From the NCBI GenBank assembly GCA_046563655.1, contig CM102283.1:1054001-1118000 (forward strand): a stretch of 64,000 nt of DNA, read 5' to 3'. This DNA is from Yuukianura sp. NJ FZ-2021. Taxonomy: Eukaryota. The notes below the pieces were generated by a model, which had not been told where the DNA came from, made no database searches, and was given only the letters and a program-made list of their open reading frames with translations. Positions 6,301 through 64,000 of the stretch are shown in pieces; position 1 is the first letter of the stretch; every line of letters starts with the position of its first letter. The translations under genes and the position numbers were made by a program.

Positions 6301-9300
6301 TCACTTCAGAACCGTTTCGCTGTCCGTCCATGCCATGATTGGACAATGTAACCGTGTTGCTTCCATCACTTTCGGGATTAATTTGGACAAAAGAAGAGCA
6401 CCGCAAAGCTCAAGTCTCGGAAGGCTGATTTGCTTCATGGGAGCTACCTTCGTCTTTGAAGCAACGATGTTTGTGGTGACCCGACCATTCCTCTGACTTG
6501 ACCGAACGTACACCACCGCGCAGTACGCAAGTTCAGAGGCGTCACTAAATCCATGAATTTCAATTATTCCTGGAACACCTGAGAACAAACACCTTGGAAT
6601 GGTTAGACCTTTTATGTTCTGGACACTTTGGACATAGTCATGCCATTGTCCAGCCAGATCAGGAGGAATCTCATCGTCCCATGAGAGTATTCCATTTTCC
6701 TTTCCTGAAACTGGTGACCACAGAACCTGAAAATAAACTTTGATTTTAACAGTTAGGGGGGACAAAAAACCAAGTGGGTCAAAAACCTTGGACATAGTCG
6801 ACAAGACCGTCCTCTTTGTGACCACGCCCACTGGTTTTGGAGTGTAACCTTTAAAATGAAAGTAGTCACCTCCACTGTCCCAACACACTCCTAAAACTCT
6901 GTCAAAATCAGCATCACATGTTATTACCTCATTTTTACCTCGGTTGATTTTAGGAATGGACTTCAGTACATCTTTCGAATTGGAGTCCCACTTTGTAATT
7001 TCCAGACAACCACGACGTAGAAGCCCTTCTAGCTCTGTCACGAGTTGGTTAGCCTCTTGGACACTGTTGGCTCCTCCCATCAAGTCGTCCACGTAAAAAT
7101 TTGACTTTAGTACCTCAGCAGCCATTGGAAATTTGCCTTTCTCGTCTTCTGCGAGTTGCTGGAGGCATCTGACGGCGTGAAATGGGGCGGAGCTTGTGCC
7201 GTATGTCACCGTTTGAAGTTCGTATTCACCAATTTCATCACTTGGTGTTTGTCTCCAGAGGATCCGTTGTTTTCTCTGGTCACATTTGTCCACGAGGAAT
7301 TGACGGTACATCTTTACGATGTCCGCCTTAAGTGCAATTTTATTAGTCCTGAAAAACAACAAATGAGAAAAAATATCAGGTTGTATAGTCGGACCCACTA
7401 AAAGACACTCATTCAACGACACATTATTTGACGTTTTCGCTGAACCGTCAAACACCACTCGTAATTTCGTTGTTGTGCTCGTGTCTTTCAAGACAAAATG
7501 ATGGGGCAAATAATTGGTCTCTCCAATGACCTCACCCTCCTCCGACTTGGTCACTCGACTCATGTGGCCAAGTTCTTGGTATTTTGACATAAATTGGTGG
7601 TAGTCGTCCTTGTACTGAGGGACCTTTTGCAAACGTTTTTCGATTCCCAATAATCGACTTACGGCCATGTCCCGTGACGAACCCAATTTGACACAATCAT
7701 TTTTGTATGGTAATTTGACCACGTACCGGCCACTCTCAGTCCTGGAGTGGTTTGACACAAAATGTTGTTCTGCCAGTGCCTCCTCTTTAGTGTACACCGG
7801 CCGAATTGGGACACTCTCAAGTTCCCAAAATTTTTTCACATACGACTCACACACAGAAGTAGAAAAGTTGACACTTACGTTTTTTGTAGTGCTTACCGGG
7901 CCAGATATGACCCACCCAAACTCAGTTTCCTCAGCGATGGGAAGACTAACGTCACTTTGTACCTTCTTTCCAGTCTTCAAACGGGCCACAAATTCACTGC
8001 CAAGTAGAATGTCCACATCGCTGGGCTGAAGATAGGTTGGATCTGCCAACTCCAAATTTTTCAAATGTGGCCAATCAGTGTTTTTCACAAGAAACGAGGG
8101 CAGAGTACCTGTAACTTTGTTCAAGACTAGAGCACAAACATTAATTTCAAAATTCTTAATTCTAGATTTGACACAAAAGTTCGTTTCTCCCAACGCTCTT
8201 TCGACCTGGGTTCCTGAAATGCCTGTAATGGTCACATTAGCACGATGTTTTTTCAAACCTAATTTTTTGACACACGAATTTGAAATGAAGTTGGACTCAG
8301 AACCTTGGTCCAACAAGACACGACAATTTTGGTAATCACCAAAGGAGTCCATTACACTCACCACAGCTGTAGCCAAAATAACACGAGTACTAGAACAGTA
8401 CAGTGCTGTGGTTGAAGTGGTTGGTTTCTCCTCCTTTGTATCCACGGCTGGAGGTTTCGGTTTTCTGTCATAGTGGAGCAGTGTGTTGTGCCGTTTTTGA
8501 CATTTTGCACATTTAAATTTAGACACACACTTGCTCTCACCGTGACCACCCCTAAGGCAACAGAAACACAAATTTTTAGATTTTACAAATTTCTCACGTT
8601 CGTCGACTGCCATGGCGTTGAATTGGTCACATTTGAACAACGAATGTTCACCCCCGCATTTTGGACATGGGACCTTGGAGGACGATTGGTGAGACTTTTT
8701 CTCAGTGGGTTTCTCAGCAGTCTTTTTCTCACTGTGACCCGATTTTTCTGAGCCAACATTTAACCCACGAAGGTGATCTTCCAGAAAGTCCTTGACCTCG
8801 CTAAATTTTGGCATCTGCGTACCTTTGAAATGGCGGGTCCACTCACGTTTTGTTTCAACCGAAACTTTTTCTAAAATCAAAAAAATCAGAAAAGAGTCCC
8901 ACTTGTCCACAGGCTCCTTCAACACCTGAAGTGACCTGATGGACTGATTAAAAACATCAAGCAACTTCCGTAGTGCTTGTGCGGACTCATTAGCAATTGG
9001 TTTGAAATTCACAATATTTTTCAAAAATGAAAATATGATTTGGCGCGGGTTTTCATACCGCTCTTTGAGGCTGTCCCATGCCTCTTCAAAAGTCCCATTG
9101 CTCAAATCGAAGTACTTGAGCGCTTCTTCAGCCTCACCCTTCAGCGTAGGCTGGAGATATCCCAGCTTCTGGCTTCCAGTCAAGTCAGGATTATTGACAA
9201 TGTAAGTCAAAATTAAATCCTTGTAGGACAGCCAGTCTTCGTATTTGCCGCTGAACGTGGGTAGTTCCAACTTCGGCATATTTACTTTCATTTTTCCAGA

Positions 9301-9756
9301 TGCTGAGCCTCCACTGACCTGGGACTCAAAAGAAATCAATTTCAGATTAATTGCATCTAAAAACTTATCACACACATTTAATTCCGCAGCCTGCGCGCGT
9401 ATTTGCGTTTCGTCGTCGCAGTTCATGTACACATCGCTGCGCAATTCACTTAGCCTTGTTTCGAAACCCTCAAGTTTCTTCCGTTCCATCGCCATCCTGG
9501 GCTTGGACACAAGGGTGGGATTTGTGCTGTACTCCTCCACTTTTTGCTGAAAATACTGGAGGTCAAAGTTGAAACCTCTTATGGCTTTTACCATTCTCTG
9601 CATGTTTTCAGACTCCACACTTGGTAGTGACACGCTCAGCATTGATTTCGAGCCAGTCGGCTTGACCTGACCTTGACCTTTTGCTGCAGCCACCTTACTC
9701 TCTTGTTCTTGGTCAGACATGGCCAAAGACGATTCTTTGGCTTTCTTCATGGTCAA
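6301..9756 (-). CDS. BEL/Pao Gag-Pol N-terminal part (Gag with three Cys/His knuckles, aspartic protease, RT, RNase H)
   Basis: LPTFSGKYEDW; CPKCGGEHSLFKC/CFCCLRGGH/CAKCQKRHNTLLH; LLDQGSE; KLRVVFDGS; YVDD; FSDAS; LPRLELCGA; ends in a premature TGA. Confidence 0.93.
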   Translation of the reverse strand: MTMKKAKESSLAMSDQEQESKVAAAKGQGQVKPTGSKSMLSVSLPSVESENMQRMVKAIRGFNFDLQYFQQKVEEYSTNPTLVSKPRMAMERKKLEGFETRLSELRSDVYMNCDDETQIRAQAAELNVCDKFLDAINLKLISFESQVSGGSASGKMKVNMPKLELPTFSGKYEDWLSYKDLILTYIVNNPDLTGSQKLGYLQPTLKGEAEEALKYFDLSNGTFEEAWDSLKERYENPRQIIFSFLKNIVNFKPIANESAQALRKLLDVFNQSIRSLQVLKEPVDKWDSFLIFLILEKVSVETKREWTRHFKGTQMPKFSEVKDFLEDHLRGLNVGSEKSGHSEKKTAEKPTEKKSHQSSSKVPCPKCGGEHSLFKCDQFNAMAVDEREKFVKSKNLCFCCLRGGHGESKCVSKFKCAKCQKRHNTLLHYDRKPKPPAVDTKEEKPTTSTTALYCSSTRVILATAVVSVMDSFGDYQNCRVLLDQGSESNFISNSCVKKLGLKKHRANVTITGISGTQVERALGETNFCVKSRIKNFEINVCALVLNKVTGTLPSFLVKNTDWPHLKNLELADPTYLQPSDVDILLGSEFVARLKTGKKVQSDVSLPIAEETEFGWVISGPVSTTKNVSVNFSTSVCESYVKKFWELESVPIRPVYTKEEALAEQHFVSNHSRTESGRYVVKLPYKNDCVKLGSSRDMAVSRLLGIEKRLQKVPQYKDDYHQFMSKYQELGHMSRVTKSEEGEVIGETNYLPHHFVLKDTSTTTKLRVVFDGSAKTSNNVSLNECLLVGPTIQPDIFSHLLFFRTNKIALKADIVKMYRQFLVDKCDQRKQRILWRQTPSDEIGEYELQTVTYGTSSAPFHAVRCLQQLAEDEKGKFPMAAEVLKSNFYVDDLMGGANSVQEANQLVTELEGLLRRGCLEITKWDSNSKDVLKSIPKINRGKNEVITCDADFDRVLGVCWDSGGDYFHFKGYTPKPVGVVTKRTVLSTMSKVFDPLGFLSPLTVKIKVYFQVLWSPVSGKENGILSWDDEIPPDLAGQWHDYVQSVQNIKGLTIPRCLFSGVPGIIEIHGFSDASELAYCAVVYVRSSQRNGRVTTNIVASKTKVAPMKQISLPRLELCGALLLSKLIPKVMEATRLHCPIMAWTDSETVLK

Positions 9757-10018
9757 CAGTTTGTCAACTTTGATTAATTTTACTCAAAAAGAGCCACACA
9801 CGATAAGTTAGACAATTACTGTTGCCACACACACATATGTCATGACCGAAGACTCAAGATTACACAAATACACACTGACACAATGATTAATTCATTAACA
9901 CATTTGTTCAATTGACACCTTTGAACTCACCTAAGTTAACTGTTACGTTAGTTAACGATTACCAAAATACCGCATGCTTCATCCTTTGTTGATTGGTGGT
10001 TCGTTGTCTTGTCGACGC

Positions 10019-30577: not shown

Positions 30578-33307
30578 CTTTTTCAAAAAATGAACTTTTT
30601 TGGAAACGAAAAGTAAATTTTTCAAAAAATGTTTGCTTTGAGTACCATGACTTATGTACTCATGTACTCAGAAAACAGAAAAAAATTCGCCTCAGATTTC
30701 ACCTTGTCTTCTGAAGATTAAAACTTGTTTTGATTTTGATCCAGCAGACTAATGAGGCATCATCATAGTCAATTCTTTAATTGTCATCACATCACCTCAT
30801 TTTGAGGCATCACATCATTGTCCGCACTCTTTAAGCATCATCATCATCATCATCGTCACTTTTTAATCATCATCCCATCATCTTCATCAGCATCGAACTT
30901 AAAAATTTTCAAGTCAGTGAAAATGGATTTTTGATTTTAATCAGGAATGTTATGTAGCAACTAATTTTTTTTATGAGATGGGAGTGAAATCAATATCAAA
31001 CCAATTTTGTAAATGTTCGAAAATTCAAAAAAAAGCAGAGTTTTTTCAGTGTTGTTGGTCATATCAAAATTTCTAAAAATCGAAAGCACATCCAAAATGG
31101 TGATGCTTCCATTTTAGTAATTGACTCTCGAATCCGTTCTGGATACTATTTGAACAAAAGTTCTCCAAAACATCAAAATTCATTGTCCACTGGAAATTAT
31201 TCAACCAATTGGAATCCGTTACTCTCTTGTTCAATTTTCAAATTCACTTTCCCGCATCGCTTCTCTTCAATGTCAAGGTCACTAATCGCTAGAAAATAAC
31301 GCTTACGTTCAAGATCCTCTGGAAGTTGCTGCGACCTAAAAATTGGAAACCGGAGGGACATGCGGAATCAGTGCGCCAAAAATTTCGACTCCAGCAATGT
31401 AATGTCAACTGGAACAAAGTTAGAATTGGAGCCATTTTTGTGTCGAAGTTTTGTTTTCGCTAAAACCCCAAGCGGTTAACATGTAAAAACTAAACCTAAA
31501 CCTAAAATTCAGCTAAACGGTTTACAAACTCTGCCAATGCATATATTTTTAAAAAACAAAGTTGAAAGTCAGTTTCTTTTACTCACGTGTTTTTTTCATC
31601 GATTTATTTTAGTTTTGTGTTTTTTAGAACAACTCAAAGAAGACACAGTAACGAAGTAAGCTGAAGTTCGATCGGTACAAAATTAAAAATTTCCAAGAGT
31701 GAAAGCAAAATCTGAAAATTGCGCAGCTTTATGAAAACTCAAGTCCGTTTTTTTCAATAACACTTCAAGAAATATTCGCCCTTCAAAATTTCCAATTGTA
31801 TTGATGAAAATCAGTTGGCTTTGTAAATAATTTTTTTTAAACTGTTCCTAGGATTGTGCACTTTCAAACTCATTTAGAAAATCTTTTCAACTCAAATTCG
31901 TCTATAGAAAACGACCTAGTAAATGAACTTTTGAATTCCCAAACTAACAATCACTTGCAGTAGCTTTTGAAAATTAAGATTGTAGAAATCTGCTTGTAGA
32001 TTGTAGAAGTGCAATAATCATTGAATGAGTCATTTTGAAACTTCTTGTCCTTTCAGCAACTGGAGGATATATAGCGTATATCTGATGAAAATAATAACTT
32101 ATGAAAAATTCATAATGTGTTATTTGTCCTTTGCGACGTTCACGGATGAGAAATCGCCAGGGCTTTCTTCAATGTGCGACGTTGGAAAAGAAGTGACATA
32201 TCAGCAAAGCGAAGTTAACTGCATTGTCAGCATGTAACCAGTCCATATTACATTACAAAAGAGTAGATAAGACATTTTAAAATGTCCATAATACTAAAAA
32301 CGCCTAACACTGCAAGCACACTGGTGCAAAATCACTAGAAATACACCGTCAACATCTTACATCCGAATTTTACTAAATATTGCAAAAAATTGACCAAAGT
32401 TGTAACAAAATGAGACAGCATAACAAGAAAAAAAATTCAAAAATATTATGGCATGTATCATTGAACAACCAATTCTCCAAGGTTTGTGGAGTAAGAGGTT
32501 TGGGGATTACCTCATGTTATTTCAATTTTGGAACTTTTCATTTCATTGCATCGTAGTCATAACAATACAGCCAATTTTTTAAATTTTGCATACGAATTGG
32601 TACCAATTTTTGTTTTCATTTTGTTTTCTAACAAGTGAAGTAGAGTACTCAACCTCTGAATGAACAGTTAAACAAAATCCACTTTTCGTTGTCAGGGAAC
32701 TTTGCAATTCTCTGTCATAAATGCTAACGTTTGAGAAAATATATCACATACAGTGAAAACAATACATCTTCGTAATGCGGTTATTAAAGATTTGGTATTG
32801 AAACCACTAATCACTGTAGTCAGTTTAATAGCCTATCGACGCGCTTTTAGCGCGGGAACGTAAAAGTGGAGCAAACAAGATTGCAAGCTTTGCGGTGTCG
32901 TTTTCTTCTCAAAAATACAGAATTCCTTGTTAGTTAAGATTGGATTTCAAGGTCTCATAAGGGTACATTGAAGGGTCAACTTTTGTGGCATCTTTCTAAA
33001 AGTACTCCTTTAATCTCTCGCTTCGTGAACGCAACAACTACCAAGAACTCCTTCACAAGTAATAACTTGACTAGTTTTCTGTTGCGATTCCACTGTGCAT
33101 GTGACTTTGGAATTACATTTGAACTGTTTATTGAATTTCAAACAGTTTCGAAGTGCTAACAAGTTAGAAAACATCGAGTAAGAAGAGCTAAGTTTGCCCT
33201 TAGAAACAACGCGTTGCTTCTGGATGAGATGTAAGAAACGAAAAATTCATCTTAATTCATTTTAATAATTTGGTTTCATGATCTTTTTTAATGACAGGGA
33301 GTATTTA

Positions 33308-34424
33308 ATGAGACAAAGCTCATTTCGTCTTGACAAAATCAATGAAATGGATAACATTTTGAAAACTTTTGTGAGACAAAAGCTAACCCCGAGCACGGAG
33401 TACAAGCGAACAGGAAACGAACATGCTGACAAAATATTCAAGTATTTGCAGCAGTTCAACGAGTTCAAAATTGGAAGGACTTTGATTGGAGGAAGCATGG
33501 GGAAAAATACTGCATTGGGTGATGAATTTAACCCTGATTACGATTTGGTCGTTTTTTTGAACCACGAATGCCCGCCATTCAAAGGATTTTTGAACTTTTT
33601 TGACAAAAAGTTCCAAGCGGAAGGAAAGAAGGCATTTGGTCAAGATTTTGTTTTTGGAAGAGCAACAGAATTTGGATTGCAATTTGAAATTGGAATTTAC
33701 AAGTTCGATTTGCTTCCTGCCGTGAACTTTGAAGTCGGATCAGGAAAAAAACAAATCTTCCATACTCTTAGGGCGATTGAAGCATGTCGAAAGCCTTCCT
33801 CCAAAAAATCAGGCGGCGTATTTAGTTCCAGTTTGCAGGAGTACGCTGTCAGCTTCGTTCTTGGATTTCCCGAATTTGTTCACGATGTCATTCGACTGGC
33901 TAAATACTGGAACAAGCAAGTTCCTATTAGCAAGGACGTCTACATTCCGGGGAGGTCAACAATGATAGAACTCATTGCAATTCATGCAAACGTGCGCAAA
34001 AAGAAGAAACACTTGCTGACAGGATTTAAGCGTTTCTTGGTCGCCATGACCACCGTGGATTCGATTGAAATCTGGTTCGGTGCTTTCTATCCTGAATGTG
34101 CCATTGGTAATTTGTTTGCTTAGTTTATCACTCATGAACGCTGTTTATTTTATTGTTAATAACTTTTTGGTATAACTGTTTTCTGTAGCTGGAACAAAGA
34201 TGAAGTCAGGAATGCCGTTGGTTATGGATCCAGCGAATCCGCACAATAATATTTCGCATGAGCTGGGAAAGGAAACGACAGAAATGCGGGAAGCTTTGAA
34301 TGCGTTCATGAACAAAGCACAAGAAACTCTCGGAAATCTGGACAAATTAGCCATAGGTTGGACTGTTGAACAATGTTGCCAACGCACTCCACTTCCAGCG
34401 CTTGGACGACTATCGATTCATTGA
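33308..34424 (+). CDS. OAS: 2'-5' oligoadenylate synthetase-like nucleotidyltransferase (exons ~33308-34106, 34189-34424)
   Basis: GGSMGKNTAL...DYDLVVF, third Asp in FDLLPA, VIRLAKYW, PLVMDPANPHNN; phase-1 GT-AG intron joins in frame; the start could instead be an ATG split by an intron at 33231-33297. Confidence 0.85.
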
Positions 34425-49400: not shown

Positions 49401-52400
49401 ACTCTTCGGCCAAAATGGAAGGCAGCTCCTCCTACAGAGATCAGTTTCAACAGAAAGAACTTGAAGAACAAAAGCGGTATAAAAAATTCAAAATTTCGAA
49501 AAATTTCCAAAAATGGACAGACCTTGAAAAGTGACCAAACTTGAATTGGTCTCGAAGTGGCCAAATTTGGTCCCATTTCGGTTATGTATGAATTTTTGAC
49601 ACCTGATGAACTGACAGATTTGACAATTCGAAGGCCTAAATTTTCAGGAATACTTTATTTTTTTGAAAAAAGGCCAAAAGTGGTGGTGAAATTTTGATGA
49701 GAGAGAAGTGGTTGGGCACACTTAATAGACATAGTTTTCCAAATTCTAGAACTTTTTTCTACTTTTTACAAAAGTTTGTATGCAAGTTTCGATTTTTTTC
49801 TAGGTTCAAGCTGGAAGACTATGCCGAAAAGGCGGGAATTTTCGGAGACATGGATACCGTTGAAACACGAATCGTTACTGAAGTGACGTCTTCAGTACCC
49901 GGAGATTTTGAAAAGTTAGGAGCGAGAAATTTTGAAAAAGACGACTTAGTTGCAAGGAGCATTTTGCTCCAAGATACTTCAGATGGAACTACGACGAAGT
50001 TCCAGTCTTCATCTACTCAAGAATCCAGTTCCATGGCAACATCGTCTTACCAAAAAAGTTCATCATCATCCAGTCACGTCCAGAAGAGTTCCAGTGGATA
50101 TCAAATGACCTCCGAAATTGAAGGAATCGATTCGATTACTGGGCTGAAAATCGATTCCAAGGATTTCATAAACCAAGGAATCGATTCCGGTGATGCGATT
50201 ACTGACCGAAGACTGGATTCCAAAGATTTGATTACCAGACAAGAAGTTGATTCCACTTCCACGCAACTAATCGCTCCGATTGAATCGATTACTACGCATG
50301 GAATCGATTCGATTACTAGGCAAGGAATCGATTCCAACCAATCAACTACTATTAAATACTCGAGTCAAGTCCACGGTGGGACTTATACTAGAAAACAGCT
50401 TCGTGGCGGGAAGCTTGTTGACGTGCCTTGGTCAGGACCAGTTCCATCCTCTTCCGATTCTGCACAAACTCAGTCCATTCAGAAAATCTTTTCTTCTGAA
50501 CAAGATTCCGATGTCAACCGACAGTCCACGAGCGTCTTCGAATCAACTGCGCATGACTCCAAGCAAGAATCATCGAAACTTGTGTCCAGCAGCTACATGC
50601 TATCTGATACGCTTGACCACGTCGCTGACATAATTGATGGACACTCCACAGGAACCGTTGTGAAAAAAAGTGGCGTCACCTTTACTCCAATTCCTCCGAA
50701 GGACGCAAGACATGGGCAGACGACGCTTGACATTTCTCATGACACTTCGTTACTTGATGTTTCACGTGACGCAACAAATTTTGAAGTAACTTCTTCTACC
50801 ACGACAGTTGACATGTCTCAGTCGTCGCAAAAGTCTTCCAGAACAGGTTCCAAGGTCGTCGATGGTCGTACGGTAGAAGATTATGCAGAATCAAGCGAAT
50901 CCAGCCAGAAAAGAGTCAGAGGAGGTCCGCAAGGTCCTGTATCAACTTCAACCCACGTAACTTCTCGTACTGAACACAGTACTGGAGTGGGAGGAGACAC
51001 GAAAGTGGGGGGAGGTGGTGGGCCTAAGGGGGAAAAAGCTCCTCGTGGTCCTAGGAAAATACTGCGCGGTGGTCAGCTGATTACGCTTCCAGCTGACCCG
51101 GGATACTACGATCAGCCGGACCAAAGCGGCACTTCCAGGGCTACCACGCAACTCCTTCCAGTAAAACCATCTCGGGCGGGAACTTCAGGAACATTTAAAT
51201 CTTCAATTGATCACTCCGGTTACCAAAACATTCAACAGAGTGAAGAAATTATTCAAGAGTCGGTCAGTTCCCTCAAAGGCTTAGGCGACGAGCTAACTCA
51301 GCGTCATACGACATTCAAAATTGTTCCTGGAACGACTACATACACATCCCGAGGCGACACAACGAGCGACATGAGCACCCATGGAAGAACTTTTGTGTCA
51401 TCAATTGACGTCCAAACGACCGAAACTACTTCTAAAGAAGAGCATGTCAGCCAATCAGCAGAGATGTCGCAAAAGTCGTATGAAATGTCGCAGATGACTT
51501 CTGGAGCTACGTCGTCGCAAAAGCAAGTCAAGAAATCCACGGATAAGTCGGATCTGTCAAAAGACCTCAGTTCCACTACCGATCACATTACAAGGTCAAC
51601 GACCTCTGGCCAAGATGATTCTACAACGGATAGGTCAAAGGTCATTTCCACTGACAACGATACAGTCACGAGATCATTTCACGATACAACGACTTCAACC
51701 GAAGAAAGCAACACAGCACTGGAACGGATCAACCGCGTGTCCTCGGCGACATACGTTGATCATATTACTGATGTCACCCACTTGCGACACGTTTCAAAAC
51801 CGAAGAAAACCGTTTTGCAAAGTTCCGAAATGGAAACCATGTCGAGCGGTACGGTACACGACCTGGGTGATATCCAAGGTCTGACGGTCGTCTCACAATC
51901 AAGAAGCTCCGTCGGACAAACTGTGGATCAGCGACAGGCGCAGACAGATCTTGAAAATTTGACTCAGACGAGACGTGTCTACGGAGTAGACATTGAGACG
52001 AGTCTGTCCAAAGTCAATGTCCAAGCGATCCACGAAGAAGAAATTTCTTCCGGAACTGTCCGAATCGGTGACTCTGGAATCGAAACGACCGAGAATGTGG
52101 TCAAATCTGTAACTGAAATTAAACGAGCCAAAGTTCCTGGAGGAGATCGTCCTGGAAAACTTGTTGAAATTGACGAACGCGTTTCCACTTCGACGACGTC
52201 AACTGACCAACAAACTTTCAAGTTTCACGAGATTAGTTCCAGTGAAGCTGAGAGAACGCTGCGTGAAACACGCCGGCGCAATGACATTTTCAAATCCGAC
52301 ACTGCAATTGAGTCGGGAGTCACAAGCAAAACTTCAGATGTCAAAGATGACACGACCGAGAAACTCAAAGTTGGTCAAGTACTGGTCGAGGAAGTTTTTG

Positions 52401-55400
52401 ATACAAACACGTCTTTTGAAAGTCGAGATCGGAATCACGTTAAGACGAGAGCCATGGAAGACGAACATCTTCAGACCACCACGGTCCTGGAGAAGACTGA
52501 AGACGTTTTCAAACCGGTAGACCGACCGAGTCCGATTCGGCAAAAAGATAATTTGAAACCGGAAGGAGAGTTTTACCGAAAACCGAAAGATGATGCTCCG
52601 CTACGCGGCGATCGAGCGCCAATCAAAAAACCAACGGACAACTTGACTACAGAAGGTAAAAATATTTATTTATTTTGTCATTTTGTAATTGCAAAAAAAA
52701 AAAACCCTGCGCATGAGCAGTTTTTTTTGTTAAATTATTTGTTCAGGGTTATTGCGATTTCTTTCATACTTTGCCACTCGGTTTCCGTAAAAGTTGAACT
52801 TTGAACTACGTGAGGAATTCCCGCAAAAATTCGTTTTTCATCCACCTCTGCTAAATCTTGATCCAGAACTTTTTCGACCATGTTAAATTCCGTTTTCCTC
52901 GTCCACATTTCCGTTCCTTTCAAAAGCATCAAAGGCCATGCGTCTAGAATTCCGGGTTTTAGAAATTGACGAACCCAGTCAATAGATGAGCGAAACGAAT
53001 CGACGGTTTGTAGTGGCAAACCATAAATTAGCGATACTTCGAAAGGAATTTTCAAATTCCTTAGTTTTTCTGCAGCACTCACAACAGCCTTTAAATTGTT
53101 TTTGCGTCTGATCACTTTTGACTCGGACGGAATAATCGTTTGAATGCCAAACTCCAGCTCCACTTGGACTCCTTGAGCTTGAAGCCGACAGAGGGCGTTG
53201 AGAAACTCATCTCGAACCATTTCAAACCGGCATTGGAGGGAGAGGCGACCACTGTAGCCACTTTTTTCAAACTCTTCTAGAATGTTCATGTAGTTTGAGC
53301 CGGAGTTGAAGATGGGGTCAACGATCGAAAGGTCATTGACCCCTTGCTGTACAATGAACGCAATTTCATTTTGAATTCTGTTGAGGTCACATGCCAGTCG
53401 CTTCTCATAACTGTCTTTGTGTTGGCTGAAAAAAGAGGTTGCAGTAAGGACAAACTGAATTCAATGTAACCACAAAGTGTAACTACTGCCGCCATTTCTA
53501 ACTTAGTCAGAAATAGTACTACGGCTAAGGTAAACCGAAATTGACGTCATAAAATGAAGCACTAACGATACGGCATACCCATCCACTATTTTGTAATGAC
53601 GCTTTGGTTGCACTGTGCCTTCAAAATCAAATGATCACAAAAATTTAACATTTAATTTTTAAAAAACTCAAAAATTTAAAAATTTGGAACGAAGCCTAAA
53701 CTCATCATAATATTATTGTACCCACGCACTGCACGAATTAAGTGTTGCAGTATAGTTTCCGTTACTACACGGGTGGTTACACCGAATGTAACTCCGGTTT
53801 ACTCTAATACAATATCTCGATTCCAATAGCTTTATGTCGTTCCTTAAAGGAATTTCAGAAGAATATTTTAGCAGAGTTATTTATGTGAGACAAAGTGGTA
53901 CGGTTAGCATTTGTGGTTACAATAGTTGCAGTTTGTTCTTAAGCCAACCAAAAGGAACAAGTGAAAGGACATCCCCTTTTCGTTTCCAGGCGAAGATACT
54001 GCTTGTGCTTGACAATTCCGGGACTCAAGAGTGGGGACGGCAAGGCGCTGAGGTCATACACCGATTTCACGCCAAGGTCACTGTGACCTTTGTAATGTAC
54101 TCCATCAATTTGCATTTGACCTTTTGACCTGAGATTCTTCAAAAGAGTTGTAAGACTTTGCTCTGCATAGCCTCTGATGAAAATGTCTCCATATGGGTAG
54201 TTGACCTCGAGTGACCCCGCTGGGTTGTACGTCACCTGTGGTCCACCAAGGACAGTGACCACATAGGGGCTCTCGGCCTTGAGTTCGTTTAGGCTTGGGC
54301 TGATGTAAGACTCATTCCAGACATAAACTCCAGTTGCGACGAAATCGGGACGAAGTTGACGCGTGTCGGTTAGAAAGTCGTTGCAAATTGTTTGCAAATT
54401 TCCTCTGTTGACGTTGTACTGTCGGTGAACGATGTCGTACCCCGCAGTGACCTCCGGGTCTCTTTTGAGTTGTGCTAAAATTGAAGATGCTGCGAGAGAA
54501 ACGTTGGGATCTTTTTTCCTCAACCAATCAAAAGACGCCAGAAAAAGTCGCTTCATTTTTCAAAAATGTTTGAAAAGATTTTCCAAAATCTTGACCAATT
54601 GCACTCTGTGGTCGTTCCAGTATGACTAACTCATGACTTCAGATCTTTGCAAATCTCGGCCTTGTTTTTGCAAAATGACTCACTCCGTTCCAGTTTTTTC
54701 TTATCTATTAAACTTGCAGTTATTTGCTTCTGACGCAAAATGTAAGTTGAGGCTGCGACGTTTTGTTTTGGAACTGAATAGCATTTTTATCTCTCGTTGT
54801 TTAACCATTAGTATGCTCGTAAGTTGGACGTGACGAAGGACGACTGACCTTTTCCTGACCTTTAAATGGTATAATTAGCAAAAGTAGTTCGCTCTTTACA
54901 TTTTTCTCCTACTCTGTCTGTCTGTCCGTCTGTCCGCAGGACACTATAACTCTGGCTCCTGGAACCACTTGACCGATTTCGAATCTTTCTTCCTCTTTAC
55001 AAATGAACTTCATATGGTCTGGTTGTTATTAATCTGTTTTCGGTTTTACCGGAAGTAAACAACTTCGGGGTTGTGAACTTCATTTTTATTTCGCTACTTC
55101 TATATGTCGTTTACGACGGTTTATTAAACCCGATCCAGTTTAGGTTGATTGATTAAGTAGATTGATATTTACCAAAAGCCACTTAAATTGTTTTGAACTT
55201 GAACCGATTGACACTTTTTTTGAAAATCATTTGATTTGAAAACCTTTAGAATCGATACGGCTTTCAAAAGTAGTCAACCCTATTACAGATAACCAAAAAA
55301 AGTACTATGGCTTATTTATCCAGTGGCACAAACGAAAACGAAATTTTAAAAGAAGTCGTGCTAAAAGAAAGTGTGTCATTGGAAGATTGAAGTGTGTTTG

Positions 55401-58400
55401 GTTAAGGGAGAAAAACACATAGTGCAAAAGAGTTAATCAATTCCATTGATTGTTAATTAATCGAATTTTTAATTCGTTTTCTCTTTTCTTTTTCGTAGGA
55501 GAGTTCTACAAAAGGCCAAAGGACGATGCTCCGTTGAAAGGTGACCGTGCTCCCATTAGGCGTCCACAGGACTCGTTAAAACCAGAAGGCGAATTCTACA
55601 AGAAGCCAAAGGAAGACGTTCCAGCAGGAGAGAAGCGACAGCCAATAAGACATCCAGACACACTTTTCCTGGAAGGTATGGATATTTTTTAAAAAGACAA
55701 AAAATTATTTCAGAATTCTGAAATTGTAACCAAAAATTCTGAAACAGGCGAGGTTTACCAGCGACCAAAACCGGAAGGCCCTATGAAGGGAGACAGAGCT
55801 CCTACGAAACGACCAGAAGACAATCTTCGAACTTCAGACGAACCATTTTACAAGAAACCGACTCCAGAATTTCCAAAAGGAGAAAAACGAAGTCCGGTAA
55901 GACACGGCGACAATTTGTTTCTCGAGGGACAATTTTACCAAAAACCGAAAGAACCGATTCCGGTAGGAGAGCGCGCTCCGGTCAAAAAACCGGTAGATAA
56001 TTTGAAACCTTCTGAGGAACAATTCTACACGAAACCGGTTCAGTCCGTACCGACCGGAGAAAAACGAAGTCCGATCCGGCATGGAGATAATCTTTTCCCC
56101 GAGGGAGAATTTTATAAAAGACCAAAGGAACCGGTACCGGTAGGAGAGCGTGCTCCGGTCAAAAAACCGGAAGATAATTTGAAACCATCTGAAGGCGAGT
56201 TCTACACGAGACCGGTTGAAAGTCTTCCTGCTCCGGAGAAACGAACTCCAATCAGACACGGGGATAACTTATTCCCCGAGGGCGAATTTTACCGGAGACC
56301 GAAAGAGGGCGTTCCGATAGGCGAAAGAGCTCCAACAAAAATTCCGCAAGACAATTTGAAACCGTCGGAAGAAGAATTTAGTCAGAGACCGACACAAATT
56401 GTTCCGACTGGAGAAAAGAGGACACCAATCCGACACGGTGATAATCTGTTCCCTGAGGGTGAGTTTTACAAACGACCAGTGGAACCGGTTCCGACAGGAG
56501 AGCGCGCTCCGGTAAAGAAACCACAGGACAATCTGAAACCTTCCGAGGAAGAATTCAGCCAAAGACCAACTCAAGCTTTTCCAACCATTGAAAAACGAAC
56601 TCCCATCAAGCAAGGTGACAATCTCTTCCCCGAGGGAGAATTTTACAAGCGACCGATTGAACCTATACCGAAAGGAGAACGAGCACCGGTCAAAAAACCG
56701 GAAGACAATTTGACGACATCCGACGCAGCATTTTACCAAAGACCGAAAGAAACTGCTCCGAAAGGAGAGCGAGCGCCAACAAAAATTCCACAAGACAATT
56801 TAAAACCGTCCGAAGAAGAATTTTACCAACGTCCAACCCAAATTCTTCCGACACCCGAAAAACGAACTCCAATCAAACACGGAGACAATCTTTTTCCGGA
56901 GGGCGAATTTTATAAGCGACCAGTTGAACCGACTCCAAAAGGAGAGCGTGCTCCAACTAAAATTCCACAAGACAATCTCAAACCTTCAGAAGAAGAATTC
57001 AGCCAGCGACCGACCGAGAGATTTCCAACTGGAGAGAAGCGTTCACCAATCAGACACGGAGATAACTTGTTCCCGGAAGGTGAATTTTACAAACGGCCAA
57101 TCGAACCGATTCCAAAAGGAGAGAGGGCTCCAACTAAAATTCCACAAGACAATTTGAAACCTTCAGAAGAGGAGTTTAGTCAGCGACCAACCGAATTGAT
57201 TCCGACCGGAGAAAAACGGACACCAATCAGACACGGGGATAATTTGTTCCCCGAGGGAGAATTCTACAAACGCCCAGTTGAACCAACTCCAAAAGGCGAA
57301 CGTGCTCCGGTCAAAAAACCTTTAGACAATTTGAAAACATCCGAGGAGGAATTCAGCCAAAGAGTGACAGAAACTTTCACAATTGGAGAAAAACGAAGCC
57401 CAATCAGACATGGAGACAATCTTTTCCCGGAAGGCGAATTTTACAAACGGCCAGTAGAACCCACGCCAAAAGGAGAAAGAGCTCCAACTAAAATTCCAAA
57501 AGACAATTTAAAACCGTCCGAGGAAGAATTCTACCAGCGTCCGACCGAATCTTTTCCAACAGGAGAAAGGCGTAGTCCAATCAAACACGGTGACAACCTC
57601 TATCCAGAAGGAGAATTTTATAAAAAACCGGTCGAACCGATACCGAAAGGCGAACGGGCTCCGGTTAAAAAACCGGTGGACAATTTGACAACGTCTGAAG
57701 AAGAATTCAGCCAAAGAGTGACCGAAACGTTTACAATCGGAGAGAAACGAACACCAATCCGACATGGCGACAACTTATTCCCGGAAGGTGAATTTTACAA
57801 ACGGCCAGTTGAGCCTATTCCGGTCGGAGAAAGAGCTCCGGTAAAAAAACCGCAAGACAATCTGAAACCTTCCGAAGAAGAATTTAGCCAAAGACCAACC
57901 GAAACTTTTCCTACCGGAGAAAAACGAACACCAATCAAGCATGGCGACAACTTGTTCCCCGAAGGTGAATTTTACAAACGGCCAGTTGAAAAAACACCAA
58001 AAGGAGAACGAGCTCCTACAAAAATTCCAAAAGACAATTTAAAACCGTCCGACGAAGAATTTTACCAGCGCCCGACCGAATCTTTTCCAACTGGAGAAAA
58101 ACGAACTCCAATCAAACACGGAGACAATCTTTTTCCGGAGGGTGAATTTTATAAACGCCCAGTTGAACCGATTCCAAAAGGAGAACGAGCTGTAGTGAAA
58201 AGACCAGAAGACAATTTGACCACCTCCGATGCTGATTTTTACCAAAAGCCAAAAGAGGGCGCACCAAAAGGCGAACGAGCGCCTACCAAAATTCCAAAAG
58301 ACAATTTGCGTCCTTCTGAAGATGATTTTTACCAGAGACCGGTTGAGCAAGTTCCAATTGGAGAACGACGACAGCCAGTAAGACACGGCGACAACCTGTT

Positions 58401-59913
58401 TCCAGAAGGTGATTTTTACCAACGTCCAGTGGAACCAGTACCACGAGGGGAGCGGGCTAATGTGAAGAAACCAGAAGACAATCTCTACCCGGAAGGAGAT
58501 TTTTACCAGAGACCAGTAGAGACAGTGCCAAAAGGCGAGCGAGCGCCTACCAAAATTCCGCAAGACAATTTGAAACCATCCGAAGACGAATTTTATCAAC
58601 GACCAATCGAAAGCCTCCCTTCGCCAGAAAAGAGAACGCCAATCAAACACGGAGATAACTTGTTTCCAGAGGGAGAGTTTTATCGAAAACCGATCGAAAC
58701 TGTTCCGGCTGGAGAAAAACGAACGCCAATCAAACACGGCGATAACTTATTTCCGGAGGGAGATTTTTATCAGCGGCCAGTCGAAAAAGTACCGAAACCG
58801 GAACGTGTTTCGCCTAAAAAACCGACGGATAATTTGAAACCGTCCGAGGAGGAATTTACTCAACGGCCTGTACAGGAGTTTCCCAAAATTGACAAACGGA
58901 CGCCAATCAAGCAAAAGGATTCGCTTCGCCCTGAAGGTTAGTATGTTACGTTTTTTTCTTAGAACGAGAATGCTTCGTTGTCGTATTGGGGCTTCGCCGC
59001 TGACTCAATCACAAAATTAATAGTTTAGCAATATTTTAATCAAAAATTATTTTTCAAAGCAATTTTTGCTGAATTAGCAAGTCACGTTGCCTTAAATGCT
59101 AATGGTTACACACAAACAGGGCCTTAAGAAGAAACAGCCCTAACTTTTTAGTATTGTAATTGATAGTGAATACTTTTTTCGGATTGGCAATTCTTTGCAT
59201 TGTAAGAATTTTGGTAAAATTTTACTATCATGTGAACTAATCCTGTTTACTATCCCTACTTCTGATTTTTATGAAACTGTTTCTGAGAAACTAACCGCTT
59301 GAGAAACCGATGATCACAGAATGCGAAAAAAAATTGTGTTGCGACTGCGAGACGAACGATGTTTGTTTTCATTTTCACCTTAACCTAACCTTAACGCTTT
59401 CGCAAAGTAGTTTTTGCTTAGAAAATTCTTTGATTCTTTTTCTATTTCGTTAAATTCACTTTTGAAATTGTTAAACAGCGTTTTTATAACGTTTATGTTA
59501 GTTTTGATGAGGTTTCGCAAAATGGATTTTATTTATAAACAAAAAAAAAAGAATAGTAAACTGTGTCCTTTTATGGTGAACTTCACATTTTCAAAATTTT
59601 GATAAAACAAAAACACTTCGAGTAACAACCCCATTTTTTTTATTTTTGCGATCAGTGGCGCTTTTAGATATTCTCGGAAAATTTTTCATCAAATATGAAA
59701 GCTCACGATAAAAACATTCTTGCTTCACTTGTTTCAAACTGTGAATTTATACAGTTTTGAGTACCTATAAGAGAAATTTTTTGCGCGTACTTTTTTTTTG
59801 AATTGCATTTTTTTTTGTAAGTGACGAAGATGTTTCTAACTTTATGTTCTAGAGAACAAGTTCTACTTTGTACTTGAGGTGCAACTTACGGACTGTTCTC
59901 CAACGGTGCCGAA

Positions 59914-59953
<40 letters not shown>

Positions 59954-62900
59954 CCGGCGGGTCGAAACCGTCTTTCGGCACATTATTTTTTTTTTCTATT
60001 TTTTAAAAGAATTTAGTTGAAAGCGCTTCATCATACCTTGACAGCTTTAATTATTTTGAAAAACCCGCTTTATTTTTTTTTTGTAGAACCGTAAGTTTTG
60101 AAAATTATTGTGAATTTTTTCTACCGTATTGACTGAGTATACGAATCAGTATTTAGTGGAATGTGAGGCTAGTAGTTAACTTTTGACTTTTGCAGTTAAT
60201 CTTATCTTGGTTGATGACTGCTCTATGGACTTTAGTTTTGAAACAGGAACAAACATTATTTCCAATAACTTGTTCCTGTCTAGAATTCAGAATTGTGACA
60301 CTTTGACCTTTGATTTATTTTGAAAGTCAGTTTTTTTAGCATTTTGAAATTGGAAATTTCTATTGACAGGTGAATTCTATCAACGTCCAGAGGAAACTCA
60401 AATTTTCGTGGGCGAACGCGCGGAGAAAGTTCTTCACGAAGACAATCTACTTCTGGAAGGACAATTCAGTGAAGTTACTACTTCGAGAATGGACTTTAGA
60501 GATGTCAGAGGAGAAAGAGTCCAGGTCAAGAAGCAAGTGGACAATCTCTACATGGAAGGTCAGTAACATTTTTAATTGTCTTTACCAAAAAGCCTAAAAT
60601 TTTGAAATATTTTAAGTGTTTTATATTTCCGATTTTGTTTTTAGGTGAGTTTTATAAAAGACCAGAAGAGAAAGCACCTCTGAAGGGTGATCGTGCTGAA
60701 AAAGTGATTCCAAAAGACAATTTGAAGCCTTCTGAAGACGAATTTTACAAGCGACCGGTCCAGCCTATTCCTAAAGGTGAACGAGCAGCGGTCAAAAAAC
60801 CGGAAGATAATTTGAAACCTTCCGAAGAGGAATTCAGCCAGCGACCAACCGAAAAATTTCCAACTGGTGAAAAACGAACACCAATCAAACACGGAGACAA
60901 TCTTTTTCCGGAAGGAGAATTTTACAAGCGCCCTGTCGAACCAATTCCAAAAGGTGAGAGAGCTCCTACAAAAATTCCAAAAGACAATTTGAAACCATCA
61001 GAGGAAGAATTCTATCAGCGCCCGACCGAAACTGTTCCAACCGGAGAAAAGCGTACTCCAATCAAACACGGCGACAATCTCTTCCCCGAGGGAGAATTCT
61101 ATAAACGTCCAGTTGAGCCAACTCCAAAAGGAGAACGAGCTCCTGTTAAAAAACCGCAAGACAATCTGAAACCATCCGAAGAAGAATTTAGCCAGCGACC
61201 AGCCGAAACATTTCCGACTGGAGAAAAGCGCAGTCCAATAAAACAAAGTGACAACTTGTACCCCGAGGGTGAATTTTACCAACGTCCAGTTGAATTGGCT
61301 CCCAAAGGAGAGCGGGCTACCGGTAAAAAACCGGAAGACAATTTGACGACTTCTGATGCCGCTTTTTACCAACGACCGAAGGAACCAGTTCCAGTTGGAG
61401 AAAGAGCTCCGGTCAAAAAGCCCGTGGACAATTTGAAAACATCCGAGGAGGAATTCAGCCAAAGAGTGACAGAAACTGTTACAACTGGAGAAAAACGAAC
61501 CCCAATCAGACATGGAGACAATCTTTTCCCGGAAGGAGAATTTTACAAGCGGCCAGTTGAACAAACACCGAAAGGCGAACGAGCTCCAACTAAAATTCCA
61601 CAAGACAATTTAAAACCTTCAGAGGAAGAATTCTATCAGCGTCCGGCGGAAACTTTTCCAACAGGAGAAAGGCGTAGTCCAATCAAACATGGTGACAACC
61701 TTTATCCAGAAGGAGAGTTTTATAAAAAACCGGTCGAACCGATTCCAAAGGGCGAACGAGCTCCGGTTAAAAAACCGGTTGACAATTTGACAACGTCTGA
61801 AGAAGAATTCAGCCAAAGAGTGACAGAAACGTTTACAACCGGAGAGAAACGAACACCAATCAGACACGGAGATAACTTGTTCCCGGAAGGTGAATTTTAC
61901 AAACGGCCAGTCGAACCGGTTCCAGTAGGAGAGAGAGCTCCGGTCAAAAAACCGCAAGACAATTTGAAACCGTCAGAAGAGGAGTTTAGCCAGCGACCAA
62001 CCGAATTGTTTCCGACTGGAGAAAAACGGACACCAATCAGACACGGGGATAATTTGTTCCCCGAAGGAGAATTCTACAAACGCCCAGTTGAACCGACTCC
62101 AAAAGGCGAACGAGCTCCGGTCAAAAAACCTTTAGACAATTTGAAAACATCCGAGGAGGAATTCAGCCAAAGAGTGACAGAAACTTTTACAATTGGAGAA
62201 AAACGAAGCCCAATCCGACATGGAGACAATCTCTTCCCGGAAGGTGAATTCTACAAACGACCAGTCGAACCCATTCCAAAAGGAGAAAGAGCTCCAGTAA
62301 AGAAACCGGAAGACAATTTGAAGCCATCCGAAGAGGAATTTGAAACTAGGCCAGTCAGCAGTGTTCCAATTGGTGAGCGACGAAGCCCAATCAAACACGG
62401 AGACAATCTTTTCCCGGAGGGTGAATTTTACAAACGTCCAACTGAACAAGCTCCCAAAGGCGAACGAGCACCGACCAAAATTCCAAAAGACAATTTGAAA
62501 ACATCCAAGGAGGAATTCAGCCAAAGAGTGACAGAAACTTTTACAATTGGAGAAAAACGAAGCCCAATCAGACATGGAGACAATTTGTTTCCGGAGGGAG
62601 AATTCTATAAGCGTCCTGTCGAATCAGCTCCGAAAGGCGAAAGAGCTCCAGTCAAAAAACCCGAAGACAATTTGAAACCTTCTGAAGAAGAATTTGAAAC
62701 GAGGCCAGTCAACAGAGTTCCGGTTGGTGAAAAACGAAGTCCAATTCGGCATCCCGACAACTTAAAACCCGAACAAGGGGAGTTTACGCAGAGGCCGGTC
62801 AGCGATACTCCAAAAGCAGAACGTCGGACGCCCGTAAAACAGAAAGATTCTCTGTATCCTGAAGGTAAAATATTCCTTTTTTCAAAAATTCAATTGTACG

Positions 62901-64000
62901 TTTTCGAAATTTTGATTTTCTAAATGTATGAATTTTCATTTCCAGGAGAATTCTACAAACGACCGCCAGAAAACGTTGGGCCTGGTGAGCGACGGTCTCC
63001 GATCAAACAACCCGACAATTTGTACCAATCAGGTCCGTTCTACGCCAAACCAAAAGATGTCGCTCCGCTGAAAGGTGACCGCGCAGACGTTCTTCGGCCA
63101 ATTGACAACCTGCGACCGTCCGGAGACGTCGACTATGGACACAAACCGACTGCAGTTCCAAAGGGAGATCGCTATGATGCAAAAAAACCAAAAGACAACT
63201 TGTCTCCCGAAGGAGAATTCTACAAGCGACCGAAAGAACAATTTCCAACAGGCGAGAGAAGAACGCCAAAGAAACCGCAGGATAATTTGCATCTTCCAGA
63301 TGGATTGTTTACGCAGAAGCCAATGAAGGAAGGACCCCTTAAGGCAGAGCGAGCAGAAATTAAAATTCCGTCGGACAATTTGAAACCTGGCGGGAAATTT
63401 TATGAGAAACCAAAAGACGACGTCCCGGTTGGAGAACGACGACGTCCAATTCGTCATGAAGATACACTCAAAACTGAAGGTAAATTTTTCTTCTGACGCT
63501 AAAAAAAACAATGGTGCATCGTAGTTAAAAAATTTTAAAAAAAAAACCTCCTTATTGCTTTTTCTTCAACTGCTCTTTTAGCTCTTGAATAAAACTTCAT
63601 CACTTTTTGTCTCTTGCCATCGTATTTATGTGGTTGTGGGCTTACTTTATTAAATTGCATATTAAAATTTCAAATTCCAAAAACTAACAAATTCTTCAGC
63701 TTCTTTACTCATAATTTCACCTGTCGCGTCCATTTTGTTGAAACATTGCTCATTTTTAGGTCAATTTTACAAGAAACCGGTTGAAGCCGTACCGGTTGGT
63801 GAGAAACGATCTCCGGTAAAACATCCCGATAACTTGTTTCCTGAGGGAGACTTTTACAAGCGACCGGTTGAGGAAGTTGGTAAAGGAGAGCGGCAGAAAC
63901 CGTACAAATACAAGGACAATTTGTTCCCGGAAGGCGAATTTGCAAAAAGAGATGCCCAAAAAGTTCCTGTTGGGGAACGAGCCGAAACGAAACGCCCGGT
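46404..64000 (+). CDS. Giant SAXO/FAM154-like (possibly chascon-like) repeat protein, runs off the window; exons 46404-46504, 49141-49273, 49355-49476, 49804-52655, 55499-55675, 55748-58936, 60370-60558, 60645-62864, 62946-63479, 63760->64000
   Basis: Spliced N-terminus CVCELCTCGGHRCPH resembles the SAXO Cys-rich motif; MEGSSSYRDQF and FSEVTTSRMDF are Mn-like; Ser/Thr-rich region, then dozens of DNLxPEGEF repeats; all junctions are GT-AG and in frame. Confidence 0.8.
52735..54556 (-). CDS. B12-binding-domain radical SAM protein, 432 aa; exons 54556-53949 and 53425-52735
   Basis: GVYVWN and VLGGPQVT (B12-binding fold); RGYAE; LPSP; ETKRGCPFTCSF|C (CxxxCxxC completed by splicing); DPIFN; EFGIQT; LIYGLP.QT; PLMLLKGT. 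Confidence 0.9.
54914..54945 (+). repeat. GTCT/GTCC microsatellite, probable HINE/DINE-1-like remnant
   Basis: CTGTCTGTCTGTCCGTCTGTCCG resembles 10317-10335; termini not recognisable. Confidence 0.35.
59908..59980 (+). tRNA. tRNA-Phe(GAA) variant with a non-canonical T-arm
   Basis: Cloverleaf: GCCGAAA/TTTCGGC, GCTC/GAGC, TCAGA-CTGAAGA-TCTGA, GGCGG-GTCGAAA-CCGTC, discriminator A; oligo-T terminator ~6 nt downstream. Confidence 0.92.

Follow-up and report, generated by a model that had tools for sequence, protein, structure and literature searches.

Gene structure and genomic setting

The window considered here, a stretch of 64,000 nucleotides from Yuukianura sp. NJ FZ-2021 (assembly GCA_046563655.1, contig CM102283.1, positions 1,054,001 to 1,118,000), carries on its minus strand a two-exon gene for a predicted cobalamin (B12)-binding radical S-adenosylmethionine (SAM) protein, nested antisense within an intron of a much longer host gene (Table 1). 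An original prediction, made from the sequence letters alone, had described two open reading frames (ORFs) joined through a 523 bp GT–AG intron (53948–53426), a third cluster cysteine codon split by that intron (TG/C) and an intact product of 432 residues. Both ORFs, 53939..54559(-) and 52735..53460(-), are reproduced in the ORF listing of the window, as are all of the intron coordinates. Translation would start from the ATG at 54556, which an in-frame TGA precedes by one codon. The donor GT (53948–53947) immediately follows the final TG of exon 1 (53950–53949); the acceptor AG (53427–53426) is preceded by the polypyrimidine run CCTCTTTTTTC, and the C at 53425 completes the cysteine codon. A scripted join of 54556–53949 and 53425–52735 yields 1299 nt, corresponding to 432 codons and a TAA with zero internal stops, so that the frame is open after the join and the product is intact.

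The join restores RGCPFTCSFCQHKDSY, a motif carried by homologues, and the spliced junction reads ETKRGCPFTCSFCQHKDSYEKR at the place where full-length homologues read RGCPF[RK]C[ST]FCQH[RK][DE]S. The 420-position PDC-M51A profile of PADLOC-DB is matched by exon 1 over positions 5–199 (E = 1.4e-43) and by exon 2 over positions 201–412 (3.7e-68); the matches follow one another in this way, so that both halves keep the order of the profile on either side of the split cysteine. At the level of homology, the splice and the split codon are confirmed down to the residue, well beyond chance. Profile and fold searches were run exon by exon, with full-length homologues standing in for the spliced protein.

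The setting of the gene is equally well defined. On the plus strand a host exon ends in ACA GAA G/GT at 52655/52656 and resumes past the AG at 55498, giving the join TEG/EFYKRPKDD, which carries on the PEGEFY[KR][KR]P repeat encoded by the exons on either side. This repeat continuity confirms that the radical SAM gene lies wholly within intron 52656–55498 of the giant gene, in antisense orientation. Host exons lie 80 bp past its stop and ~940 bp upstream of its start. The content of G and C (GC) is 44.9% in the exons of the gene, 45.9% in the host exons, 35.4% in the gene's own intron and 39.7% in the window.

Table 1. Features of the radical SAM gene and of its surroundings (positions are those of the window).
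Feature	Position	Strand	Remarks
Exon 1 (coding sequence)	53949..54556	-	Met1 to first two bases of Cys203; cobalamin-binding Rossmann-like domain, linker, first two cluster Cys
Exon 2 (coding sequence)	52735..53425	-	Third base of Cys203 to stop TAA (52737-52735); remaining radical SAM barrel and C-terminal helices
Pfam B12-binding stretch, residues 38-138	54143..54445	-	PF02310 match
Trp80 codon in YVWNE	54317..54319	-	Aligns with TokK Trp76 (profile alignment)
Radical SAM cluster motif C196-x3-C200-x2-C203	53949..53971	-	Last Cys completed by base 53425
Spliceosomal intron, GT-AG, phase 2, 523 bp, 35.4% GC	53426..53948	-	
Two overlapping AATAAA poly(A) signals	52665..52674	-	61-72 nt past stop, 10-19 nt from host exon; candidate sites, read from sequence
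Left arm of 47-nt terminal inverted repeat of intron	53437..53483		Ungapped score 23
Right arm of intron inverted repeat	53903..53949		Ends at exon 1/intron border
Host intron GT..AG enclosing the whole radical SAM gene antisense	52656..55498	+	Repeat motif continuous across join
Upstream host exon, open frame	49667..52655	+	Ser/Thr-rich, then PEGEFY[KR][KR]P-type repeats; no Pfam domain
Next host exon	55499..55675	+	Same PEGEFY[KR][KR]P-type repeat

Domain composition and predicted fold

In the Pfam searches proposed with the original prediction, the B12-binding domain PF02310 scored above its cut-off on exon 1 (36.1 bits, 6.7e-9; cut-off 32.1), whereas the radical SAM domain PF04055 reached 27 bits (5.9e-6) on exon 2 alone, below its cut-off of 29.5, because the cluster loop is encoded on exon 1. 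Full-length homologues carry PF04055 in their precomputed annotation, and the three cluster cysteines are invariant or nearly so across 38 aligned sequences. An AlphaFold model of exon 1 based on the 38-sequence alignment has a mean predicted local distance difference test score (pLDDT) of 90.7 and shows a β-α Rossmann-like pattern. A Foldseek search of the PDB with this model returned TokK as the top match (7kdx; E = 1.3e-10, query TM-score, TMq, of 0.69), and each of the 13 best matches is a chain of TokK, CysS, OxsB or TsrM, with corrinoid proteins and the cobalamin domains of MetH placed lower (MetH at ranks 37, 48 and 49). The modelled exon 1 thus appears, with confidence, to have the B12-binding fold, matching the cobalamin domains of B12 radical SAM enzymes.

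Two alignments were used to extend the comparison: A2, comprising the window's own clade and its bacterial sisters, and A1, made from 12 homologues of the other subfamily of the family. The A1 profile searched against the PDB aligned over both domains with TokK (7kdx, 1.8e-31) and CysS (9n1b, 3.3e-29). The window protein keeps 50 of the 50 invariant columns of A2 and 90 of the 99 of A1, which argues against decay of the gene. No NCBIfam model reaches its cut-off, the best being the KedN5 family (84 bits against 700), followed by the ApyD, MJ_1487, PhpK and ladderane-type B12/radical SAM families; the family is therefore without an NCBI name. Searching the ESM Atlas with exon 2 yielded solely generic radical SAM clusters, and a weak similarity to MnmL/YtqA and HemN-type barrels was seen. 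No targeting peptide is apparent at the N-terminus of the window protein, which in the exon 1 model is predicted to be the first β-strand of the cobalamin domain, and together these suggest a cytosolic location.

Judged by sequence and profile comparison, the window protein belongs with the cobalamin-dependent radical SAM enzymes; among them it comes nearest to the TokK/CysS methylases, and its family is a distinct, shorter one. The domains, the profile matches, the predicted fold and the conserved residues all support a real, intact gene of the B12-binding plus radical SAM type.

Comparison with known cobalamin enzymes

The CX3CX2C motif, the N-terminal cobalamin domain and a tryptophan below the corrin are common to the window protein, TokK and CysS. 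Trp80 of the window protein (YVWNE) aligns with Trp76 of TokK (YVWNF) and is nearly invariant in the family. In TokK this residue lies 3.8 Å under the cobalt, and among characterised methylases it is described as common only to ThnK and CysS (10.1101/2021.07.10.451909). The differences are also clear. Trp215 of TokK, an active-site residue beside the third cysteine, is replaced in the window family by an invariant histidine (CQH). The window protein has ~430 residues and its family ~410–470, in contrast to 645–681 in the TokK/CysS types; the C-terminal substrate-capping domain of TokK is absent, the profile alignment ending at TokK residue 404 of 681, and the identity is only ~20–23%. TokK and CysS act on pantetheinylated antibiotic precursors, and nothing here suggests such substrates for the window protein.

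Animals have two classical B12 enzymes, methionine synthase and methylmalonyl-CoA mutase. Both have the cobalamin-binding Rossmann-like fold in common with the window protein, but neither has a radical SAM domain, and they bind cobalamin in the His-on mode through a DxHxxG motif (PMC12931638).

Bacterial relatives and their gene neighbourhoods

Homologues of the window gene are matched by the PADLOC-DB profile PDC-M51A at 8.6e-133 (Oscarella) and 2.6e-152 (Cystobacter fuscus), and on this sequence evidence the family of the window gene is that of the phage-defence candidate PDC-M51A. Both window exons match M51A end to end. In bacterial relatives the second component, M51B, often lies directly downstream and is translationally coupled, in contrast to the window gene, which is eukaryotic and intron-containing and has no M51B gene in the window. 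The PDC systems are candidates whose prediction started from genes found within BREX, DISARM and type I restriction–modification loci (`guilt by embedding'); `SAM' and `dNK' appear in a figure legend of the same preprint as components of multi-gene candidates (10.1101/2024.01.29.577857).

Bacterial neighbourhoods were collected in two scans. Among genome contigs, 211 of 245 pattern matches encode a relative, and the best 80 of the 211, mainly from Myxococcota, Legionellales/Coxiellaceae, Rickettsiaceae, Planctomycetota and marine group II archaea, were examined. A metagenome scan with the alignment of the window's subfamily gave 294 pattern matches; 218 of these were relatives, and 80 of the relatives were retained. 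In the genome loci the sole recurrent gene directly downstream is a kinase gene of 200 codons (8 of 80), whose start overlaps the radical SAM stop by 4 bp in the four loci with clean ORFs (L018, L028, L049 and L069). The same kinase family is present in 27 of the 80 metagenome loci, or 23 of the 56 with at least 650 bp downstream, and the pairing is seen in both bacterial subfamilies (57-row tree; see below). The kinase is a thymidylate-kinase-like (dTMP-kinase-like) P-loop protein that matches PDC-M51B (4.5e-50) and VakA (1.1e-16), the latter presumably a viperin-associated kinase. Apparent fusions of the two genes at L042, L046 and L063 were rejected, all three being taken as kinase ORFs extended upstream in GC-rich DNA; at L046 the long ORF begins in a frame other than that of the radical SAM match.

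Some of the pairs adjoin known defence genes. In one metagenome locus (L112, 8001–14602) the pair is directly followed by the BREX genes PglZ (2.1e-297) and BrxL (E = 0), and the neighbour families are the same at L138 and L139, where the pair lies upstream of PglZ/BrxL; a pair embedded beside BREX genes is the kind of arrangement that lies behind the PADLOC candidate. At L113 SoFic comes after the radical SAM gene, and then genes for a type I methylase and a specificity subunit, with the same neighbour families at L117 and L121 and, in L117, the kinase between the radical SAM gene and SoFic. Other neighbours in the metagenome loci include a ParE-like toxin domain, an NYN nuclease, an ankyrin protein and a CHAT protein, and in the genome loci protein kinases, DUF4143 ATPases and Fic proteins occur in 3–6 loci each at no fixed position. 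A search of IMG/VR viral contigs with two patterns gave 19 matches, none of which was confirmed as a relative, and hence no sign of a viral vector.

Distribution among eukaryotes

The original prediction took proteins of this kind to be essentially prokaryotic, which is not borne out: named copies are found in sponges, a springtail, early fungi and dictyostelids. They comprise Oscarella lobularis (XP_065841835.1), O. pearsei, Orchesella cincta (ODM99751.1), Nowakowskiella, the Glomeromycotina Acaulospora, Diversispora, Gigaspora and Paraglomus, Entomortierella (partial) and the dictyostelids Cavenderia and Tieghemostelium, and the eukaryotic copies are scattered over the tree. The closest sequences to window exon 2 are P0254 (246 residues, 65% identity) and the protein of Orchesella cincta (60%), followed by three 253-residue proteins (56–58%) and three more at ~50%. 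Identity between bacteria and eukaryotes in the family is 44–50%.

Several observations concern individual eukaryotic members. The Orchesella model (P0255, 395 residues) lacks the region around the VWNE motif that is present in all other members, which probably reflects a mis-predicted intron in the annotation. A tight, well supported clade of 21 rows (P0003–P0019 and P0154–P0167; 109-row tree) consists of proteins of 443–476 residues, the contigs being as long as 5.6 Mb. All 53 named prokaryotic locus proteins of that tree fall outside this clade, which has a C-terminal TEGNHP tail in common with the sponge proteins and may be another eukaryotic group. The copies of Gigaspora, Paraglomus and the dictyostelids (P0197, P0200, P0020 and P0176) fall inside a Legionellales/Coxiellaceae/Rickettsiaceae clade in the 109-row and 63-row trees. 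This placement suggests that intracellular bacteria associated with amoebae or fungi have exchanged the gene, in either direction, with their hosts. The Glomeromycotina have two distinct types of the gene.

The protein kind itself is already known, and its eukaryotic members are present in databases as `hypothetical' or `uncharacterised' entries; what is unusual here is the host and the possible link to immunity. A literature search for eukaryotic cobalamin-dependent radical SAM enzymes brought up no paper about them. The string `eukaryot' does not occur in a 2026 review, and text searches for `radical SAM' gave 0 occurrences both for a paper about how early fungi use cobalamin and for the genome paper of Orchesella. 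A paper on elongation factor P (EF-P) mentions an unrelated, uncharacterised B12/radical SAM family in passing (PMC11388002).

Phylogeny and origin of the gene

Three trees were calculated with IQ-TREE in quick mode under a posterior mean site frequency (PMSF) C20 model, with 109 rows, 63 rows and 57 rows (the last including the metagenome loci), together with a FastTree of 333 rows from which P0023 (a fused model), P0017 (a duplicate), P0121–P0153 except P0138, identifiers from P0343 upwards and proteins shorter than 240 residues were left out. In the 109-row tree, to which the close relatives had not yet been added, the window gene is a long unplaced branch, and its clade region is free of the 53 named prokaryotic locus proteins. 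In the 63-row tree it pairs with P0254 (95, a starred branch) and the next branch (92) brings in the Orchesella and P0260 groups; a branch with a starred support of 97 separates this clade plus Reinekea and Bacteroidota from the remaining rows. In the 57-row tree the window's clade has 10 rows (window, P0254, Orchesella, P0256–58, P0260–62 and L081; 95, starred) and is sister to an eight-row clade (99, starred) in which Bacteroidota, Roseivirga, Reinekea and loci that have the kinase partner are found; the branch uniting both clades is supported at 96 (starred). The 333-row FastTree recovers the same sister relation (95), here to a 71-row clade of ~413-residue proteins. The window's clade and its bacterial sister have the motifs ETK and LLKGTE, whereas the other subfamily, which includes the sponges, fungi and dictyostelids, has ETQ and LLRGTP; the other eukaryotes occupy at least three further places in the tree. 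The trees do not fit vertical descent: three of them place the window's clade next to a bacterial sister clade, away from the copies of sponges, fungi and dictyostelids. The horizontal acquisition put forward in the original prediction is supported by these trees, although not as an event private to this animal, since it would predate the split from springtail-type relatives that are 50–65% identical.

Three explanations for the origin of the gene can be set against one another. Bacterial contamination or an assembly chimera would fit a protein family that is mainly prokaryotic, but here it is scarcely credible. A 523 bp GT–AG intron needs to be removed to restore the catalytic motif, host exons with a similar GC content flank the gene closely on both sides, and the nearest bacterial sequence has ~47% identity against 60% for the springtail gene, which as the closest named homologue (Orchesella cincta) itself sits on a 160-kb springtail contig. 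The earlier argument from the spliceosomal intron and the nesting is upheld, and the host-like GC content, the two AATAAA signals, the springtail homologue and a BEL/Pao retroelement elsewhere in the window add to it: the window is animal DNA and the gene is physically integrated in it. The second explanation is vertical descent: the gene would have been present in early eukaryotes, perhaps in several paralogous forms, and have disappeared from most lineages, leaving the window gene as a surviving paralogue. It would accommodate the named copies in Porifera, Collembola, Chytridiomycota, Glomeromycotina, Mortierellomycota and Dictyostelia, a distribution that resembles that of B12 use among eukaryotes, and also the position of the window's clade as sister to the bacterial clade and not nested inside it. 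We nevertheless consider it unlikely. The named eukaryotes need at least five label changes on starred branches for 10 rows in the 63-row tree; Gigaspora, Paraglomus and the dictyostelids lie within a Legionellales/Rickettsiaceae-type clade and Acaulospora and Diversispora elsewhere; and the motifs ETK and LLKGTE are common to the window's clade and its bacterial sister in contrast to the other eukaryotes. A tree constrained to unite the window's clade with the two Oscarella rows is worse by 31.0 log-likelihood units and is disfavoured by the approximately unbiased (AU) test (p-AU = 0.0216), where the group was defined after the tree had been seen and a p value of 0.02 is moderate. Further points count against a transfer: the sister relation is placed on two longish stems (0.25 and 0.69 in the 57-row tree) and could reflect long-branch attraction, all of the trees are quick IQ-TREE or FastTree calculations, unrooted and with most rows lacking taxon names, and the presence of the family in sponges and other eukaryotes makes ancient paralogy with many losses possible. 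Weighing these trees and motifs together, we think it probable that an ancestor common to this animal and springtail-type animals acquired the gene from bacteria long ago. The transfer is read as old because protein divergence within the window's clade is 35–50%.

The intron of the gene appears to be younger. It has terminal inverted repeats with arms that are 74% complementary, lying 11 nt from one intron end and exactly at the other; their score of 23 was reached by none of 2000 shuffles (maximum 15) and by none of 130 other window segments. A second copy of the inverted-repeat element was not found within the window. The intron is missing at the same site in P0254 and P0256–P0258, whose ORFs run through the CxxxCxxC motif. 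The inverted repeat and the absence from relatives suggest a lineage-specific gain of the intron from a small element with terminal inverted repeats. After the transfer, the gene would thus have gained a host-like base composition, a poly(A) signal and an intron found in this lineage only.

Proposed function

On balance we favour the overall explanation that the gene encodes an intact cobalamin-dependent radical SAM enzyme of the PDC-M51A family, of bacterial origin and later adapted to its host. If it follows the chemistry of TokK and CysS, one SAM would methylate cob(I)alamin and a second would be reductively cleaved at the [4Fe-4S] cluster to a 5'-deoxyadenosyl radical, which would take a hydrogen from a small substrate. 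Methylcobalamin would then pass its methyl group to the substrate radical, or a related modification would arise through cob(II)alamin chemistry. A nucleoside or nucleotide is suggested as the substrate because the bacterial partner is a coupled dTMP-kinase-like gene, a proposal that we regard as possible but doubtful. An antiviral product of the animal gene is suggested because the bacterial relatives sit in defence-island contexts; such a product, which seems rather unlikely, could act on viruses as the products of viperin do. Viperin (RSAD2) neighbours the kinase CMPK2, prokaryotic viperins exist, and the protein is both antiviral and equally conserved. Its pairing of a radical SAM enzyme with a nucleotide kinase in prokaryotes and animals resembles that of PDC-M51. 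Viperin itself is without a cobalamin domain and did not match in any search made here, and the likeness is one of logic, with homology only at the superfamily level.

Two other accounts accept the gene as a real transfer. The first holds that it is now a silent or decaying relic without function; an antisense site in another gene's intron could be a neutral landing place, and the bacterial kinase partner is not in the window. Set against this are the open frame of 432 codons, in which the 50 subfamily invariants, the three cluster cysteines and the corrin-facing tryptophan are all kept, the canonical splice sites that restore the motif exactly, and the open frames of relatives 50–65% identical, which point to long purifying selection. 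We regard a relic as very unlikely. That the same enzyme, of the same origin, has a housekeeping or metabolic role with no link to immunity (for example in lipid, cofactor or RNA methylation) is a serious possibility, although less than an even one. The strong conservation of residues between bacteria and eukaryotes, typical of a fixed small substrate, the 72 of 80 genome loci in which the gene occurs without the kinase and the weak similarity to MnmL/YtqA and HemN-type barrels all speak for it. A housekeeping role accounts less readily for the kinase pairing in both bacterial subfamilies, the pairs placed directly before PglZ/BrxL or SoFic and type I restriction–modification genes, the ParE-like, NYN and CHAT neighbours and the independently derived status as a PADLOC candidate, and viperin combines equal conservation with an antiviral role. 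Several points weigh against the favoured explanation and its extension to immunity. Most of the bacterial loci examined are without recognisable defence neighbours, the defence context being confined to a minority; PDC-M51 is a predicted candidate system and was not named in any paper found in our literature search; and an M51B-like kinase was not found in the 64-kb window by tblastn with four M51B-type kinases (best E = 0.05). The histidine in place of Trp215 and the missing C-terminal domain mean that the chemistry may differ from methylation. What the sequences show is how the gene is built, its domains and family, its place in the trees and the neighbourhoods of its bacterial relatives; expression, cobalamin use, substrate and immune role are all inferred, as are the direction and age of the transfer. 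The furthest-reaching proposal, that some animals carry a working PDC-M51-derived enzyme which makes an antiviral modified nucleotide, and which would be a second viperin-like effector and a third class of B12 enzyme, is in our view distinctly improbable.

Other features of the window

The host gene is very long, with plus-strand exons at 49667–52655, 55499–55675, 55693–58941 and 60500–62923 that encode a ~28-residue repeat rich in Pro, Glu and Lys (PEGEFY[KR][KR]P...GERAP.K.P.DNLKPSEEEF). No Pfam domain was matched; we take the repeat to be reminiscent of PEVK-type elastic segments. A BEL/Pao retroelement at 4489–9783 (-) retains a near full-length coding region in two long open frames, with DUF1759 gag-like, aspartyl protease, reverse transcriptase and Peptidase_A17 domains followed by integrase and DUF5641. 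The Atlas clusters most like this element are 100% eukaryotic, most commonly from Arthropoda or Cnidaria. Further open frames in the window match GH47, FHA, 2OG-Fe(II) and OAS1_C-like domains. The last of these, at 33269–34123 (+) and ~19 kb from the radical SAM gene, is a weak match (1.1e-5) to the C-terminal domain of 2'-5'-oligoadenylate synthetase and is a possible innate-immunity gene.

Significance

If the gene were an unexpressed relic, it would be an ordinary addition to the many foreign genes of soil arthropods. If the favoured explanation is true, an intact, spliced and conserved copy would extend the B12 biochemistry of animals beyond the two textbook enzymes, and would provide a clean case of an old transfer from bacterium to animal with later intron gain. 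It would also offer a testable lead to a new branch of immunity common to bacteria and animals, like viperin, cGAS–STING and the gasdermins.

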